Made by a program: the position numbers and the translations under genes. Shown piece by piece: positions 1 through 6,643 of a DNA stretch of 6,643 nucleotides. Under the pieces are notes generated by a model. It did not search any database, had not been told where the DNA came from, and saw only the letters and a program-made list of their open reading frames with translations. Position 1 is the first letter of the stretch; every line of letters begins with the position of its first letter. The stretch is from positions 1-6,643 of IMG/VR virus record IMGVR_UViG_2778261696_000002; one strand, written 5' to 3'. This DNA comes from a virus. Lineage: Duplodnaviria; Heunggongvirae; Uroviricota; Caudoviricetes.

Positions 1-767
1 AGGTCAGCATCGGTGCCGGACTCCTGCAAATCCCAGAAGACGGAGGCGCTGATGCCGGTAACACCGTTTACCCCGACATTGGACAGCGTTTTATGCCAGC
101 CCTGCTCCTGGTCGATTTTAGCGCGCAGACCCAGCGCACGGGCGGTGGCATACGCGGTGGCGGTGGTACTGGTGACCGTATCCCATGCGAGGAAATCCGG
201 CCAGATGACCATCAGCTCACGCTGGCTGAAATTCTGGCGGTAGGCTTTCACCTCGGAAATAGTCTTACAGCCCCATGCGCTGATATATCCGAAAGCGCGC
301 AGCTTCTGACAGACGGATGCCAGTGCAACAGCCACCTCTTTGGTATCCAGTCCCGGCACACCGAGAATACGCGGTTTAACACCAGTTACCGACTCCGCCG
401 CCAGCAGGGCTTTCAGTCCGGTGTACTGACCGTTTTCGTCGGTGGTGCCGATGATATTGGAAACGGTCTGCGCAAGTTTCGTTTCCTCGTCTTCGCCGGT
501 GCCGTCTTCCACACGCACGACAACGGTGACCGGTTTTGACTGGTCAGCGATGGCCTGCAACGATGCTGCCAGCGTGCCTTTTTTACCGGCCTTTGCAATT
601 GCGCTCTGCACATTGGTAATCAGCACCGGTTTATTGAGGGGGAAGGTTTCCGCATCCGCATCGCTAGCCGTACAGACCATGCCGACAACGGCAGTGGATA
701 CGGTGGAAATGACGCGGGTGCCGTCGTTAATCTCCAGCACCTGCACGCCATGATGATAGTCACTCAT
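1..767 (-). CDS. FI: Tail sheath protein, N-terminal about 255 codons (3' end beyond window start)
   Basis: Hand translation of the minus strand from ATG at 767-765 gives MSDYHHGVQVLEINDGTRVISTVSTAVVGMVCTASDADAETFPLNKPVLITNVQSA with no stop down to position 1. This matches the P2 FI N-terminus from memory. GGAG Shine-Dalgarno (reverse complement of 775-778) lies 7 nt upstream of the ATG. Not in the ORF track because no stop is in the window. Confidence 0.9.
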   Translation of the reverse strand, partial: MSDYHHGVQVLEINDGTRVISTVSTAVVGMVCTASDADAETFPLNKPVLITNVQSAIAKAGKKGTLAASLQAIADQSKPVTVVVRVEDGTGEDEETKLAQTVSNIIGTTDENGQYTGLKALLAAESVTGVKPRILGVPGLDTKEVAVALASVCQKLRAFGYISAWGCKTISEVKAYRQNFSQRELMVIWPDFLAWDTVTSTTATAYATARALGLRAKIDQEQGWHKTLSNVGVNGVTGISASVFWDLQESGTDAD

Positions 768-789
768 CCGTTTAACTCCGTGGTTAATG

Positions 790-860
790 GGTGCAACTAT
801 TTTCTGTTGGGCAGTGCATGAGACGCTATTTGACCTGGCTGGTCAGTGGATGAAACAACA
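790..860 (-). promoter_or_regulatory. Candidate late promoter region for the FI operon (PF-like)
   Basis: About 90 bp non-coding between the upstream terminator hairpin and the FI ATG. On the minus strand there is an imperfect TGT-N12-cCA element (about 840-857) and an AAAATA -10-like hexamer (about 799-806) spaced roughly as in Ogr-activated P2 late promoters. Positional inference only; the dyad is imperfect. Confidence 0.25.
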
Positions 861-891
861 GATAAAGAAAAGGCGGGCAATTCGCCCGCCT
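861..891 (-). terminator. Rho-independent terminator candidate ending the J-I-H-G-cargo transcript
   Basis: Plus strand 871-891 aGGCGGGCaattcGCCCGCCt forms an 8-bp GC-rich stem with a 5-nt loop. On the minus strand it is followed immediately by TTTCTTTATC (reverse complement of 861-870). It sits between the cargo gene stop and the FI promoter region. Confidence 0.45.
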
Positions 892-1087
892 GTCCTGATT
901 TGTACTCACTCATTTTCCGACTGACAATTTACATAGCCCAAACGCTATCAATTCTGACAGTCTGCTTTGAGCGAGGAGCGGACGTTGACAACGGTTTATT
1001 CAGTTTATTGAATGAATACTATATCCATTTACCCAGTTCGACCTGACAAACAATGGCATTTTAAAAATTTATCACACAATGATTATT

Positions 1088-2299
1088 TTATATTTTCCTC
1101 AAGGTTGATGTGTTGATACCTTTTATCAATTCATAACGGGGAAAACCTACGGAACACTCATTTAATATGTTCGAATGAGTTGTTACGATGGTTTGAAATG
1201 AAGTCTCAATGGAATTCAATCTTTCAATGTATGGTTTAAAAGATTCCTTTGATAAAAAGGTTTCATTCATTTCTATAAAAAGTAGTGTCGGTGTGTATTT
1301 GGAACGCTCATTTAATGATGCGATTATAACATCCAATAGCACTCTAGTTTTTTCACTTCCAGATAAACACTCGAAAGGCAAATAAGAATCATTACCTTGT
1401 ATCATGCAATAGATATCATGAATATCTCGCTCTTTTTCATCTTCACTATCATCATCCTGTTCCAGCTCTTCCTGAGTAGCAAATCTGATTGATTTAAGTA
1501 TGCCTTTTTTGTTTCTGCATACATAATCAAAAAGACTCTCAAGTAGCACTGGCGATATATTTATGAACTCAGCAAAAAAGTTAGATGTTTTATTATATTT
1601 TTTCTTTGAGTAATTAAAATCAAAAAAATAGCATGCAAAAGGAAAAGGACTTGAGGTAATGTCAAGAGAATCAACTTTATAGGAAATCCTTCCGCTATTT
1701 ACACTCACTTCAATTAAGTGTGGCTCTGGCGTGTGCAAATAAATTTCAATATTGAGCTTTTCACAATTAACCCAGCGCTCAAGTCTATTTATTGCACTGA
1801 CACTTGATAACCACTCGCATATTGCTGTTTTCCCTGCGCCATTACTATCACTCTCAATAATTGTTATTTTTGCAAAGTCGATGCTTATTGAATCTTGAAA
1901 TAAAGGACTATCAACTATTGATAGTTTTGATATCCAATGTAATTTATTGACGATCCTTCCCTGGTGATGTTTAATGAATTCCTCATGATATTTTTTCCAA
2001 CTAATTAGTTGTGATGCGGTAAATCCTGCTCCATTATTTGTATCAACTAACCTTGCGTGTACCTTACATAGCCAAATTCCATTCTCAGGGCTTTTTAACT
2101 GTTCTTCTGTTAGCCCACCTTGCCCTCTGGGGCCATTTTTAGCTGCACTATAAATATGTGATGCCTCACCGATGCTGGATGTCTCATCCTCTTTTTCACC
2201 TGGGCCAATAGTTATTATTGAACATTGAGGATGGCTACATTGGTATCCTGCTCTCCCAGCAAGTACATTCTTTGTTCTTTCTGTGAATTCTACTCTCAT
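1088..2299 (-). CDS. Hypothetical fusion protein: N-terminal HNH-type nuclease domain plus C-terminal ABC-type (AAA_21/SMC-like) P-loop ATPase; candidate anti-phage defence protein
   Basis: Uninterrupted 403-codon ORF with AGGAG Shine-Dalgarno (reverse complement of 2304-2308) 4 nt before the ATG. HNH motifs: C21-x4-C26, E45-A-S-H48-I, N55-G-P-R, N73-G-I-W-L-C78-x2-H81. ATPase motifs: beta-strand ITIIES then P-loop S-N-G-A-G-K157-T, signature-like L312-S-G-S-E, Walker B-like T-L-L-F-I-E343, H-loop T-T-H375-S. Spot counts give about 30-35% GC against about 55% in the flanking phage genes. Function is inferred from motifs, not from a database hit. Confidence 0.8.
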   Translation of the reverse strand: MRVEFTERTKNVLAGRAGYQCSHPQCSIITIGPGEKEDETSSIGEASHIYSAAKNGPRGQGGLTEEQLKSPENGIWLCKVHARLVDTNNGAGFTASQLISWKKYHEEFIKHHQGRIVNKLHWISKLSIVDSPLFQDSISIDFAKITIIESDSNGAGKTAICEWLSSVSAINRLERWVNCEKLNIEIYLHTPEPHLIEVSVNSGRISYKVDSLDITSSPFPFACYFFDFNYSKKKYNKTSNFFAEFINISPVLLESLFDYVCRNKKGILKSIRFATQEELEQDDDSEDEKERDIHDIYCMIQGNDSYLPFECLSGSEKTRVLLDVIIASLNERSKYTPTLLFIEMNETFLSKESFKPYIERLNSIETSFQTIVTTHSNILNECSVGFPRYELIKGINTSTLRKI

Positions 2300-2335
2300 A
2301 AAGCTCCTATAAACCTAAACGTTAATCTCCAGAAC

Positions 2336-2363
2336 ATTTTATGTTCACCTAGCGATGATGCAA
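2336..2363 (-). promoter_or_regulatory. Candidate sigma70 promoter for the cargo gene
   Basis: Minus strand reads TTGCAT (reverse complement of 2358-2363), a 16-nt spacer, then TAAAAT (reverse complement of 2336-2341), about 30 nt upstream of the cargo ATG. Consensus-like by eye only; other AT-rich hexamers nearby are possible alternatives. Confidence 0.3.
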
Positions 2364-2569
2364 GCATGGGAAAACATAGTTTATTCAATTGAACCAACTT
2401 AAAGGTAACTTGCGCTGCATACAAGTATGCATCCTGTTAACAATTTTACAGGCCTCATATACCAGAATTCCTTGAATACGGCATCATTTTAGGTCGATTG
2501 CCGTATGCCGTGCTTCAGACTACCACCCCTCGCAACATCATCCAATATCATACTTGTTACGTCCGCTAT

Positions 2570-2611
2570 TGGCACAGAGCGGACTGTCAGATTAGGCTTT
2601 ACTCTGTGCCA
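2570..2611. repeat. Perfect 10-bp inverted repeat (TGGCACAGAG ... CTCTGTGCCA) with a 22-nt spacer, just downstream of the G stop
   Basis: Read directly: 2570-2579 tggcacagag and 2602-2611 ctctgtgcca are exact reverse complements. No T-tract follows on either strand, so it is not a canonical intrinsic terminator. It lies at the junction between the GC-rich G 3' end and the AT-rich cargo region. Confidence 0.6.
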
Positions 2612-2645
2612 TAGATATGTAAGCTCACACCAGAGTTCATATAAC

Positions 2646-3173
2646 TTATTGCGGCATTTCCGGCCATTCAGGATTTGCAGGATCCACACGGCTGACCAGA
2701 ACACTGTAGCGTTCCCATGCTTCCAGTCGGCTACGCTCCTCATCTGTTGCCATGTTCAGCCTGACAGCGCGCTCCAGTGGCAAAATCACGGATTCAGCAT
2801 CTGCAAGAAGTCTGGCTTTCCGGTTTTCTGCCTGCTGCTGCAATTCCTCTGCCGTATAAATGCGTTTAATCACTGTACCGTCCTTAAACATCCAGTTCCC
2901 TGAAATGTCCGCCCGTCGGTTAGCAGTAATATCCGCCACTTCAACAACACTTAATCCATCCGGTCTGATAGCTGTCACATCCTTTTCCACATAGCGGATG
3001 ATATTATCTTTGTCGTACGCTATTTTTAGCGTGTCATCAGCAAAATACTTTTGTTCTTCGTACCAGTTCTTACCATCTTCTGAAAAAAACCAGACAACAT
3101 CAAAGTCTTTTGTCAATTGATATTGTTCAACCGTTTTTGGATTACCCGCCGTAATATTTTTTAAATGCTGCAT
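2646..3173 (-). CDS. G: Tail fibre assembly protein (Tfa/chaperone)
   Basis: 175-aa ORF starting [22 protein letters not shown] and ending ...[41 protein letters not shown], matching the P2 gpG/Tfa family from memory. The ATG at 3173-3171 lies 3 nt after the H stop. Located directly downstream of the tail fibre gene. Confidence 0.9.
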
Positions 3174-3176
3174 AAA

Positions 3177-5306
3177 TTATACCTGCGCCACGTTATACCA
3201 TGTCCCGTTAATGTATTTCTGAACCGGTCTGTAATATACACCACCAATGTTATCGGCAGAGTTTGAGCCGGTATCCTGAACAATAATGCCGGAATATACA
3301 CACCCGGACGGTGCCTGATGTGTCCATGTCATGCCATTGTTCGCAGGTTTGTATGTGGCAGCACCACCAAGCCGGATATCCCGGACATAGCGGGAATCAA
3401 AGTTACCGTAATCCGAGGGATTAACACGCCCCGTAATATTTATGGTTTTATTACTTTGAATGCTACCGGAGACAAAGCGCATAACATGGACGTTATTAGC
3501 ATAAACATCCAGATTACCGTCGCCATTTTGTTTAAAGCCCGTGTCATTATCACCCAAAACAATCGAGTTACCGCCAAGAGCACTGGATGTACCGATGCCC
3601 AGTGCACCATTCAATTGACCTCCAGATAATGATAACGCCCCAACATCAGCAGCAGTCGGTTTAATGTGCGAACTGTAAATTACATATACAGTTCCATCTG
3701 TCAGGCCTGTTGGTTTATTCGCTGTATAAGTTGGTGATGTATGAATCGTTACGCTGGCGTTACTGGTATAATCCCACTGAATATTAACACCTGTGGCGTA
3801 ATTACCTATTTCAACATAAACATCATAGGTATCACCGGATGTATTCACCCATGCAAAATTAGTAAATCCAACCGAGGTCCGTCGCCATAACGCACCAGTA
3901 AGACCTTTTGGATTTCCATTTCCCGCACGAAGAACAAGTTCAGATATACCAGCCTGCATAGGGGAGTTAACATTATATCCGGCACCACCAATCAGACTTA
4001 TGTAAACCACGGAACTGGCCTGTGGCATGGTTACAGTTGCCAGCCTGAACCATCCTGTACCACCACTAAAAGACATGGTTGTTGAATTTGTTGCTCCAAT
4101 ATTGCGCAGGAATAATCTTTTATCAGGAATATCCGCGCCATTTTGATCTTTCTGAAGACGTTTTTCAGCATTGTCATAGGCAGACTTCACCGCTTTTGGT
4201 GTTGCGGCCAGCGTTTCCGAATCACTGTTGGTGGCGCTACTGAGCTGGACAAGACCTTTTCGCGCTGTGGTGGCGTCCTGTGCGGTATATTTCCCGTTAG
4301 CAAGGTCATACGCTGTCTTAACCGCCTTTGGCGTTGCAGCCAGCGTTTCAGAATCGCTGTTTGTGGCGCTACTGAGCTGGACAAGACCTTTTCGCGCTGT
4401 GGTGGCATCCTGTGCGGTATATTTCCCGTTAGCGAGGTCATATGCTGCCTTTACCGCCTTTGGCGTTGCCGCAAGCGTTTCAGAATCACTGTTGGTGGCG
4501 CTACTGAGCTGGACAAGACCTTTTCGCGCTGTGGTGGCATCCTGTGCAGTGTATTTCCCGTTAGCAAGGTCATATGCTGCTTTTACCGCTTTTGGTGTTG
4601 CGGCGAGCGTTTCAGACGTGCTGTTGGTGGCACTACTGAGCTGGACAAGACCTTTTCGCGCTGTGGTAGCGTCCTGTGCGGTATATTTCCCGTTAGCCAG
4701 GTCATATGCGGCCTTAACCGCTTTCGGCGTTGCAGCCAGTGTTTCAGACGTGCTGTTGGTCGCACTGCTTAACTGAGTAAAACCTTTTGCGGTCAGCGAG
4801 GCGTCCGGGTGACGTCGTGACTGTTCATGTTCTGCAATTTTGTCATCAACGTAATCCTGCGTCGCCATCACCGTTGTGGTGTCAATGGTCAGCTCCACTG
4901 AGGTCACACTGCTGACGATGATGACCATACGGCAGGTCTGCGAACGCCCTGAGCCTTCGGCAAGAGCTGGCTTATAACTTTCGGCCATGTTCGCCACGGC
5001 AATTAACGTTCCAGCATCATCGTACAGGCCAAGCTCACGCATCCAGAAACCGCCCACCTCCGGCGGAATAACCAGCTCTGCGATAATATAATTACTGTTT
5101 CGTTTGTCCTGGCTGATTTTGTTCAGCGCATGTCGCCAGACTTCGTGGATAAGCCCGGTCTGTCCGGCATCCGGGACAGGCAATTTACCACCGCCATCCC
5201 CGACGGCCATCGTGGTAATGTTGATCTTCCGCCCTCCCGGCGCGGTTGCCGCTGCCAGCTTTGCTGCACCGGCAGTGGTGATAACGGTTCTGAATTTTGT
5301 GCTCAT
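3177..5306 (-). CDS. H: Tail fibre protein with five tandem phage-tail-fibre repeats and a distal receptor-binding region
   Basis: 709-aa ORF. N-terminus MSTKFRTVITTAGAAKLAAATAPGG is typical of P2 gpH-type fibres. GAGGA ribosome-binding site precedes the ATG at 5306-5304. Contains repeated units TAQDATTARKGLVQLSSATNS(T/D)SETLAATPKAVKAAYDLANGKY. The C-terminal third is Gly/Asn/Thr-rich, as in fibre tips. Confidence 0.9.
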   Translation of the reverse strand: MSTKFRTVITTAGAAKLAAATAPGGRKINITTMAVGDGGGKLPVPDAGQTGLIHEVWRHALNKISQDKRNSNYIIAELVIPPEVGGFWMRELGLYDDAGTLIAVANMAESYKPALAEGSGRSQTCRMVIIVSSVTSVELTIDTTTVMATQDYVDDKIAEHEQSRRHPDASLTAKGFTQLSSATNSTSETLAATPKAVKAAYDLANGKYTAQDATTARKGLVQLSSATNSTSETLAATPKAVKAAYDLANGKYTAQDATTARKGLVQLSSATNSDSETLAATPKAVKAAYDLANGKYTAQDATTARKGLVQLSSATNSDSETLAATPKAVKTAYDLANGKYTAQDATTARKGLVQLSSATNSDSETLAATPKAVKSAYDNAEKRLQKDQNGADIPDKRLFLRNIGATNSTTMSFSGGTGWFRLATVTMPQASSVVYISLIGGAGYNVNSPMQAGISELVLRAGNGNPKGLTGALWRRTSVGFTNFAWVNTSGDTYDVYVEIGNYATGVNIQWDYTSNASVTIHTSPTYTANKPTGLTDGTVYVIYSSHIKPTAADVGALSLSGGQLNGALGIGTSSALGGNSIVLGDNDTGFKQNGDGNLDVYANNVHVMRFVSGSIQSNKTINITGRVNPSDYGNFDSRYVRDIRLGGAATYKPANNGMTWTHQAPSGCVYSGIIVQDTGSNSADNIGGVYYRPVQKYINGTWYNVAQV
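4176..4793 (-). repeat. In-frame tandem repeat, 132-bp period (44 aa), about 4.7 copies, inside gene H
   Basis: The string tgagctggacaagacc recurs at 4241, 4373 and 4505, and as tgagctggacaagacc again at 4637, exactly 132 bp apart. The fifth (N-proximal, 4765-4793) copy keeps the protein sequence but uses different codons. Only a few substitutions separate the units (for example T/D and A/T/S in the protein). Confidence 0.85.
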
Positions 5307-5316
5307 TATTCCTCAC

Positions 5317-5847
5317 TTATCCGGGGTAAACCGTAATTACATCGCCGTCGTAAGCCACACAACCGGCGAACAGGTAGCCGGGAATGTCCCGGGTAATGTT
5401 CAGGCCAATAAGGTGGCGGCTTGCAGGTTTGGCATCGGCAATCAGCCGTTCCATTTCCTGATACATTGCCTCCGTGATGCCGCTTTCCAGTACACCAATA
5501 TCAAGCCGGAAGGTGCCTGGCGGGTCACTGTTTTCCCACCACTCCGTCACGTTGATGAGATAGCCGAGCGGCTCCACCACACGCCGGATTGCGCCGATAG
5601 TGCCTTTATGACAGTGGATGAAATAGGCATCGCGAATAACGGCGCGTTTGGTCGCTTCCGGCCACTTTTCATCCCACCTGTCGACCGAAAACGCCCACGC
5701 CAGCCACGGCAGCAGATTTCCCGGGCAGGTGTCCGGGTTCCACAGTTCACGAATACTGACCGGCGTTTTTTCAATTTCCGCACAGGCTTTTGCGGCAGCA
5801 ATTTCAAGCGGTGATGAGCCGGTCGGCAGCAGGCGCGAATCACTCAT
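5317..5847 (-). CDS. I: Baseplate assembly protein
   Basis: 176-aa ORF MSDSRLLPTGSSPLEIAAAKACAEIEK..., the same length and N-terminus as P2 gpI from memory. Its ATG lies inside ATGAGTGA, overlapping the stop of J. Its stop is 10 nt before the H ATG. Confidence 0.9.
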   Translation of the reverse strand: MSDSRLLPTGSSPLEIAAAKACAEIEKTPVSIRELWNPDTCPGNLLPWLAWAFSVDRWDEKWPEATKRAVIRDAYFIHCHKGTIGAIRRVVEPLGYLINVTEWWENSDPPGTFRLDIGVLESGITEAMYQEMERLIADAKPASRHLIGLNITRDIPGYLFAGCVAYDGDVITVYPG

Positions 5848-6643
5848 CCGAGCCTCCGGTCACGACGCGGTATTCGGTACAGAAAGACGCCTGCGTACTG
5901 TTGAGCACAATGTCGGCCAGTGGTGCGGCCAGCTCGACACGCTGCACGCCTTCCACATGCAAAGCGGCATAAATGGCAGACAGACGGATGTCGCGCCCCA
6001 GCCGGTGCTGCGCCGTGATGTACGCTTCCAGTTTTTTCACGGCAGCAGCGCGGATGGGTTCGCTTTCGGGACCAGGGTAAAGGTAAAGCGTGGCGTTTAT
6101 CTGGTATTCAACAATGGCGGCAGACTGCACGGTCACGCGGTCGGCCACCGGCCTGACGTCCTCGCCATTAAGGGCGTTACGCACCACGGCCAGCAGGTCT
6201 TCGGATGCCACACCGTTATTTTCACGTGACAGCACAGAGATGGTGACGCAGGCCGGAGACAGACTGGTGACAGAAATATCCGCGACACGCCCGTCGGCAC
6301 TGCGACCATGATACTGATAGGCCCCCACCGACCCGGCGACGCTTAAACCTTCAAACGCCTGCTGAATACGCAGACGATAATCAGTATCAGATTCCATCAC
6401 TGCCGGTGTCGGCGGGATGGTCGAATCGTCTGCCGGGGTGATAATCAGGCGTGTGGTGTTGTAATTGGCACCAATCACATCAAGGTCATTACCGGCGGCA
6501 CAGGCCAGCATTACCGCCCGTGCTGCCTCATTCACACGCTGACGCCAGATAAGCTCACGATAAGCATTTTCCTCCAGCAGTTTGACGAGAGGCTCGGATT
6601 CCAGCGTCAGGGTACGGGCGACCGCCTCCTGCTGGTCTTCCGG
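5840..6643 (-). CDS. J: Baseplate assembly protein J, C-terminal 267 codons (5' end beyond window end)
   Basis: The reading frame is open from the window edge (6643) to the TGA at 5842-5840. The track starts it at an internal Met (6535), but the frame continues upstream. Sequence ...NEAARAVMLACAAGNDLDVIGANY... matches P2 gpJ from memory. P2 J is about 302 aa, so about 35 N-terminal codons are off-window. Confidence 0.88.
   Translation of the reverse strand, partial: PEDQQEAVARTLTLESEPLVKLLEENAYRELIWRQRVNEAARAVMLACAAGNDLDVIGANYNTTRLIITPADDSTIPPTPAVMESDTDYRLRIQQAFEGLSVAGSVGAYQYHGRSADGRVADISVTSLSPACVTISVLSRENNGVASEDLLAVVRNALNGEDVRPVADRVTVQSAAIVEYQINATLYLYPGPESEPIRAAAVKKLEAYITAQHRLGRDIRLSAIYAALHVEGVQRVELAAPLADIVLNSTQASFCTEYRVVTGGSDE

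Follow-up and report, generated by a model that had tools for sequence, protein, structure and literature searches.

Tail-fibre region of a P2-like prophage

The window, by which we mean the whole stretch of 6,643 nucleotides analysed here (IMG/VR record IMGVR_UViG_2778261696_000002, positions 1 to 6,643), comes from the tail-fibre region of an E. coli prophage of the P2-like (Peduovirus) type, with its late genes all on the minus strand. Nine complete E. coli chromosomes align over the full window length with 99.8% identity. In strain EC12 of E. coli, a complete P2-like prophage adjoining ogrK/yegQ contains the segment, with the gene order J-I-H-G-cargo-FI; the window differs from the EC12 sequence by 12 SNPs only, all of them in the sheath gene (positions 39-627), with positions 628-6643 identical. 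P2-like phage records match at 89-94% identity across 58-64% of the window. The genes are as follows.

1-767, minus strand: 3' part of the sheath gene FI
1088-2299, minus strand: cargo gene
2646-3173, minus strand: gene G, tail-fibre assembly chaperone (Pfam PF02413 Caudo_TAP, E=1.5e-34; annotated in EC12)
3177-5306, minus strand: gene H, P2-type tail fibre protein of 709 aa (PF12571 plus five PF03406 matches; 'tail fiber protein' in the EC12 annotation)
5317-5847, minus strand: gene I, baseplate protein anchoring the fibre (Pfam PF09684 Tail_P2_I, E=4.5e-55; role in P2 according to preprint 10.64898/2026.09.14.750843)
5840 to the window end, minus strand: gene J

The H protein has the same sequence as RefSeq WP_100729285.1 from E. 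coli EC12, and the first 519 nt of the gene are 96.5% identical to P2 gene H. Judged by its N-terminal domain and by the J-I-H-G order within a P2-like late operon, H is the P2-type tail fibre gpH, for which formation of the virion fibre and binding of the host receptor are the predicted roles. Its domains, from the N-terminus onward, are laid out below.

4854-5306, minus strand: N-terminal baseplate-attachment (adaptor) domain, aa 1-151 (Pfam PF12571 Phage_tail_fib, E=3e-58)
4656-4787, minus strand: repeat unit 1, aa 174-217, KGFTQLSSATNSTSE... (profile HMM positions 1-44)
4524-4655, minus strand: repeat unit 2, aa 218-261
4392-4523, minus strand: repeat unit 3, aa 262-305, 'SDSE' type
4260-4391, minus strand: repeat unit 4, aa 306-349, 'SDSE' type
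4128-4259, minus strand: repeat unit 5, truncated, from aa 350 (repeat-like over about the first 29 codons, 4173-4259; the remainder runs into the linker)
4083-4175, minus strand: conserved linker 3' of the array, aa 378-408, NAEKRLQKDQNGADIPDKRLFLRNIG... (common to the phage Mu fibre protein S)
3180-4082, minus strand: predicted distal receptor-binding part (PDB matches 5yvq/9ki1 and 9cuy; weak Pfam gp37_trimer match)

The P2 counterpart of the N-terminal domain binds gpI (preprint 10.64898/2026.09.14.750843). The repeats belong to Pfam PF03406 (Phage_fiber_2), which scores 330.2 bits against H in five matched stretches (gathering cut-off 22; E=6e-101), and these units (aa 170-380) sit between the PF12571 attachment domain and a linker and tip that resemble those of Mu S. 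A phmmer search of PDB pairs H aa 332-408 with residues 99-175 of Mu S (E about 1e-18 for this stretch), and the H tip (aa 623-708, window 3183-3440) is similar to those found in Mu S and in short tail fibres. The linker is a mosaic joint between proximal and distal fibre.

Structure of the repeat array

A first-pass annotation, made from the letters of the window, had described a tandem array of about five 132-bp (44-aa) units in gene H at 4176-4793, and both the array and, to within a few bases, its coordinates hold, in a gene that is read from the minus strand. In Tandem Repeats Finder the period is 132 bp over 4173-4760, giving 4.5 copies with 90% matches and without indels (score 903). 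A repeat search within the window likewise recovers 264-nt copies at 132-nt spacing, with identities of 92%, 89% and 76%. Counted as 44-aa units starting at aa 174, 218, 262, 306 and 350, the array spans 4128-4787.

The four full units are less alike than the same annotation had supposed when it described them as nearly identical in DNA, and none of the units is conserved in protein alone, as it had supposed of the fifth. Any two of the four full units agree at 82.6-93.2% of their DNA positions, with 9-23 of 132 nt different, and at 91-98% of their protein positions. Unit 1 is the most divergent full unit, with 83-84% DNA identity to units 2-4, units 3 and 4 are the closest pair in the array, 9 nt apart, and adjacent units of this allele differ by 21, 13, 9 and 10 nt. 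The fifth unit is 75-90% identical in DNA to the others over its first 87 nt, whereas its last 45 nt are unrelated both in DNA (24-27% identity) and in protein, and the profile HMM matches positions 1-31 only. The differences between units lie mainly at third codon positions and are almost all synonymous (dS 0.29-0.85, dN 0.01-0.08), and pooled pN/pS among units is 0.11 in the H frame; the unit protein sequence is under strong purifying selection. The longest exact repeat in gene H is 56 bp; in register, the exact tracts common to neighbouring units reach 53-56 bp.

Two overlapping open reading frames with TTG starts lie wholly inside the array on the opposite strand.

4143-4772, plus strand: antisense ORF of 209 aa
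4228-4776, plus strand: antisense ORF of 182 aa

These frames are long because just 1 of the 205 H codons in the array is TTA, CTA or TCA, the codons that would place a stop on the antisense strand. As genes they are ruled out by pN/pS values of 1.70 and 0.21, compared with 0.11 in the H frame, which bears out the earlier opinion that they are spurious; they are by-products of the repeat.

Age of the array

Near-identity of the units had been taken as a sign of recent amplification, a reading that is not supported for this allele. Its units are 7-17% apart and 9-25 nt from one another, whereas their same-position counterparts in other alleles lie only 0-7 nt away (0-7 for unit 1, 4-5 for unit 2). 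In P2, the first 87 nt of unit 1 differ by 3 nt from unit 1 of this array and by 15-21 nt from units 2-5. When 177 distinct units from 76 genes are clustered, they fall into position-specific types: first, second, internal and last. Since same-position units are closer between alleles than neighbours are within one, and since the types follow position, the duplications are older than the split among the E. coli P2-like phages, and the units are ancient paralogues whose position-specific DNA has been kept across alleles.

Copy number among related prophages

Related prophages, whose comparison the first-pass annotation had proposed, do differ in copy number, and the overall range is 2 to 6 units. 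We counted units in 73 complete H genes of IMG/VR, all with an N-terminal domain that matches that of H here at 98% identity or more, using fixed 132-nt slicing and an HMM trained on the four full units of the window, and counting a truncated last unit as one. The counts were distributed as follows.

2 units: 13 of 73 genes
3 units: 3 of 73 genes
4 units: 48 of 73 genes
5 units: 9 of 73 genes

With the N-terminus and the tip held constant, fibres of 621, 665, 709 and 753 aa have 3, 4, 5 and 6 units, respectively. The steps of this ladder are exactly 44 aa, the last 300 residues of its members are 97-100% identical, and their DNA flanks are 97.7-99% identical; the 665-, 709- and 753-aa alleles have a common distal part at 97-100% identity. 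Among the matches listed, at least 412 contigs carry a 665-aa allele, at least 674 a 709-aa allele and 7 a 753-aa allele. Five-unit arrays collinear with this one, and 93.5-100% identical to it, occur in at least 40 complete genomes. Elsewhere, P2 and pro147 have 2 units each, and H homologues of other Enterobacteriaceae have 1-4 units detectable with the window-derived profile. In the literature searched there was no explicit description of a 2-to-6-unit polymorphism, or of a same-tip length ladder, in P2-like fibres.

Stability in this lineage

Among the closest relatives compared, the array does not differ in number. Nine complete genomes, of human, pig and farm-environment origin, have the 801-bp array region without a single difference, which shows that the array is not hypervariable, although these nine genomes contain essentially one prophage, any SNPs being confined to the sheath gene, and give little resolution on rate. 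A broader view comes from IMG/VR pairs binned by the divergence of the 1.8 kb that comprise the upstream flank and the N-terminus. Where this flank diverges by less than 0.2%, copy number differs in none of nine pairs, and the arrays are identical in seven of the nine; where it diverges by 0.2-1%, copy number differs in 6 of 15 pairs. The five-unit state is fixed in this prophage lineage, and the array behaves as a slowly evolving structural polymorphism and not as a contingency locus.

Relation to known fibre systems

The repeat itself is familiar. The Pf2 repeat has been described as conserved in phage side tail fibres and was first noted in lambda Stf (PMC3368898), and PF03406/'Pf2' of lambda Stf, Mu S, P1 S and the collagen-like fibres of EHEC prophages forms one sequence family with the units here. 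However, the PF03406 proteins described so far mostly have one or two units, compared with five in direct tandem in H. In the collagen-like and coiled-coil segments of EHEC prophage fibres, lengths differ by whole periods, in multiples of 3 or 7 residues (PMC3368898). The 44-aa steps reported here follow the same principle of whole-period change, but the EHEC periodicity is a short structural one and the module here is the size of a domain.

The closest relative with a structural model is P2 gpH (NP_046775.1), which has the same J-I-H-G position, the similar 519-nt N-terminal segment noted above and the same repeat type, with a unit 1 that is 3 nt apart over the first 87 nt and a tip fold family that is also common to Mu S. 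The two differ in number of units (2 in P2, 5 here) and in their middle and distal parts, where the anchor and knob domains of P2 are replaced here; about 60% of the window aligns to P2-like phage records. The P2 fibre has been modelled as a 54-nm homotrimer of eight domains with "two repeat domains (RBPseg-D19)" directly after the adaptor (preprint 10.64898/2026.09.14.750843), and P2 H has one full and one truncated PF03406 unit, matching the two RBPseg-D19 domains of that model. By analogy, we infer that each unit here is a separate trimeric shaft domain of the RBPseg-D19 kind, and the sequence suggests that the fibre has three more modules than that of P2. According to the RBPseg atlas, D19 is also found in T4 gp34-like fibres and has similarity to the T4 short tail fibre.

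A search of the unit profile against PDB sequences identified no solved structure of the repeat: Mu protein S (aa 111-154, E=4e-24) was the sole match, and in the Mu cryo-EM paper protein S was modelled at its N-terminus only. A single-sequence AlphaFold2 model of the H monomer (aa 151-420) came out all-helix, at a confidence too low for use (pLDDT 45.8).

How copy number may change

Taken together, the explanation that we consider likely is that the window carries an old five-unit Pf2 array in the proximal shaft of gpH, which is stable here and rarely gains or loses units. The array consists of five consecutive 44-aa copies of PF03406 ('Pf2', or RBPseg-D19 in the P2 model), four full and one truncated, and the units would form the proximal shaft of trimeric gpH between the gpI-docking domain and the linker to the receptor-binding part. 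On rare occasions, in-register unequal homologous recombination or replication misalignment would add or remove whole units. Because the period of 132 is 3 x 44 and the exact tracts reach 53-56 bp, whole-unit changes would stay in frame and recombination would be possible; RecA-dependent recombination reportedly has a minimum of about 25 bp, which these tracts exceed. Divergence of a few percent between tandem repeats is said to lower deletion and recombination rates strongly, and synonymous divergence between the units probably stabilises the array against deletion. With each unit the proximal shaft would gain a module of roughly a few nm, and copy number would set fibre length in discrete steps, as the P2 fibre model suggests by presenting the repeats as separate domains. 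In addition, exchange of fibre segments between co-resident P2-like prophages would reshuffle arrays and tips: five-unit arrays are also joined to other tips (701 and 816 aa), and a 745-aa six-unit allele has another tip.

Traces of events within the array are visible in a few alleles. Adjacent units usually differ by 13-20 nt in most arrays. However, there are no differences between units 2 and 3 of allele L001, one between units 2 and 3 of L028, two between units 4 and 5 of L001 and four between units 3 and 4 of L015. Such near-identical neighbours argue for duplication in place (or conversion) of internal units.

Alternatively, copy number might change essentially only when whole segments are exchanged between P2-like prophages, at the N-terminus and the linker, with no gain or loss inside the array. 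In favour of this, H genes are highly mosaic, with one N-terminus joined to many tips and protein lengths of 322-816 aa, E. coli genomes have a median of 2 and up to 15 matching places, and the linker that follows the array is common to Mu S. Some copy-number differences may indeed represent whole fibre segments replaced and not events within the array. As the sole process, though, exchange appears very unlikely to us, since alleles with the same tip and the same N-terminus step by exactly 44 aa, and the in-place internal duplicates with 0-2 differences (in L001 and L028) are what in-array events predict.

A second alternative, that the array is a contingency-like locus, would have it recently amplified and changing by high-frequency slippage or unequal recombination, so that a population would contain a mixture of fibre lengths. 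Bacterial contingency loci are simple-sequence repeats that switch genes on and off. This array resembles them in being repeated DNA in a surface-interaction gene, with a copy number that varies among strains; but its units are long (132 bp) and 7-17% diverged, its changes are in frame only, and there is no variation among near-identical prophages. The case for such a locus draws on the differences in copy number among close relatives (the 621/665/709/753-aa ladder, with its 97.7-99% identical flanks), on the alleles with identical or near-identical adjacent units, and on the fact that all changes are in frame. However, two traits of a contingency locus are absent. There is no tract of near-identical units: the units of this allele are 83-93% identical, with 21, 13, 9 and 10 nt between neighbours, dS of at least 0.29 (0.29-0.85) and a longest exact repeat of 56 bp. 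Nor does copy number differ among near-identical isolates, whether these are the nine complete genomes with identical arrays or the IMG/VR pairs with less than 0.2% flank divergence, 0 of 9 of which differ. The drop in recombination that a few percent of repeat divergence is said to cause points the same way. We therefore regard a contingency-like locus as highly improbable, and the genomes compared give no evidence of contingency-like variation within a lineage, of the kind that the first-pass annotation had envisaged within a population.

It is least probable of all, to the point of being barely credible, that the true number of units is constant and that short-read assemblies have collapsed or expanded them. 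It is true that the 6-unit alleles and L001, the allele with two identical adjacent units, stem from draft or metagenome assemblies, that the top matches of the two 6-unit arrays in complete E. coli genomes were four-unit arrays (two overlapping pieces, 677-nt spans), with no 6-unit array among these top matches, and that many partial H proteins stop at contig ends. However, complete genomes contain both five-unit arrays (single 801-nt matches) and four-unit arrays (677-nt spans), many of them in each case, so this difference is not an artefact of assembly; P2 and pro147 have two. Moreover, alleles of different length have distinct unit sequences, which collapse could not produce. The first-pass annotation had warned of collapse in short-read assemblies, which is unlikely for this allele because its longest exact repeat, 56 bp, is shorter than usual reads and assembly k-mers, and at least 674 contigs, many of which extend over hundreds of kb, carry 709-aa alleles. 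For alleles whose adjacent units are identical, collapse would be a risk.

Switching of fibres by inversion, as in Mu G or the P1 C-type, was rejected, since no inverted repeats within the window bracket distal H (pairs of at least 18 nt are weak or lie elsewhere) and no invertase gene is found among the window ORFs or in the EC12 prophage annotation.

Implications

The repeat family, the gene and the exact protein (WP_100729285.1) are already in databases, and the two repeats of P2 have already been described; the array is an expanded example of a known repeat type, and it reveals no new mechanism. Its practical value is modest; one consequence is that a risk of misannotation is corrected, the antisense frames of the array being spurious.

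It is also possible, although we think it rather unlikely, that the number of Pf2 modules is an adaptive dial for fibre length, and that the unusually high synonymous divergence between units so alike in protein is itself selected, as a safeguard of a favoured copy number against loss by recombination. If this were true, 2 to 6 modules would match the depth of the host surface (O-antigen or capsule) or, alternatively, would set the register in which the stowed fibre docks on the sheath. Whatever the fate of this idea, the 621/665/709/753-aa ladder offers natural length variants with which fibre length could be related to adsorption. The P2-type proximal shaft tolerates 2 to 6 modules with one adaptor and one tip, a tolerance that would be useful for the engineering of P2, P4 and tailocin fibres.

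Possible recombination and cargo around the sheath gene

Comparison with the complete P2-like prophage of E. coli EC12 revealed 12 differences, all 12 of which lie within positions 39-627 (590 nt) of the window, in the 3′ part of the sheath gene FI, while positions 628-6643 are identical in the two sequences. Because these differences cluster in one stretch, they suggest a small recombination patch in FI.

The slot between FI and the tail-fibre assembly chaperone gene G carries the following features.

Open reading frames between FI and G
1088-2299, minus strand: cargo gene, 403 aa, in the P2 G/FI (Z/fun) slot; annotated as "HNH endonuclease" in EC12
2489-2743, minus strand: ORF of 84 aa, overlapping the end of G

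In PADLOC, residues 2-122 of the cargo protein match PDC-M68A, a model for a candidate defence system (E=3.6e-22), and the protein also matches HNH effector models; matches to GajA/PtuA-type ATPases, at residues 300-384, are weak. The cargo of this slot varies among relatives, which carry fun(Z), a metal-binding protein, DUF6602+SIR2_2, HEPN, DUF2971 or an Sll1717 ATPase. A 346-nt gap (2300-2645) separates the cargo gene from G, and the 84-aa ORF, which lies partly within it, gave no match in Pfam or PADLOC. On either side of the cargo gene lie the arms (953-985 and 2559-2591) of an imperfect 33-nt inverted repeat, 82% complementary, which may show where the cargo slot starts and ends, or may instead be a conserved regulatory sequence.

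Repeat units and mosaic joints of the tail fibre

Adjacent 132-nt repeat units in relatives' alleles of the fibre gene H usually differ by 13-20 nt. In a 753-aa allele known from a metagenome assembly (L001; scaffold positions 4520-5267), on which this case depends, units 2 and 3 are identical at 132/132 positions and units 4 and 5 differ at 2 nt; in a 709-aa allele (L028), units 2 and 3 differ at 1 nt. Within the family, these unit pairs alone point to a recent duplication or conversion.

Two separate segments of H show clear homology to fibre protein S of phage Mu (PDB 5yvq/9ki1): residues 332-408 (window 4083-4310), comprising the last repeat unit and a linker, and the tip, residues 623-708 (window 3183-3440), which also matches a "short tail fiber" (PDB 9cuy). 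Both segments are mosaic joints common to P2-like and Mu-like fibres.
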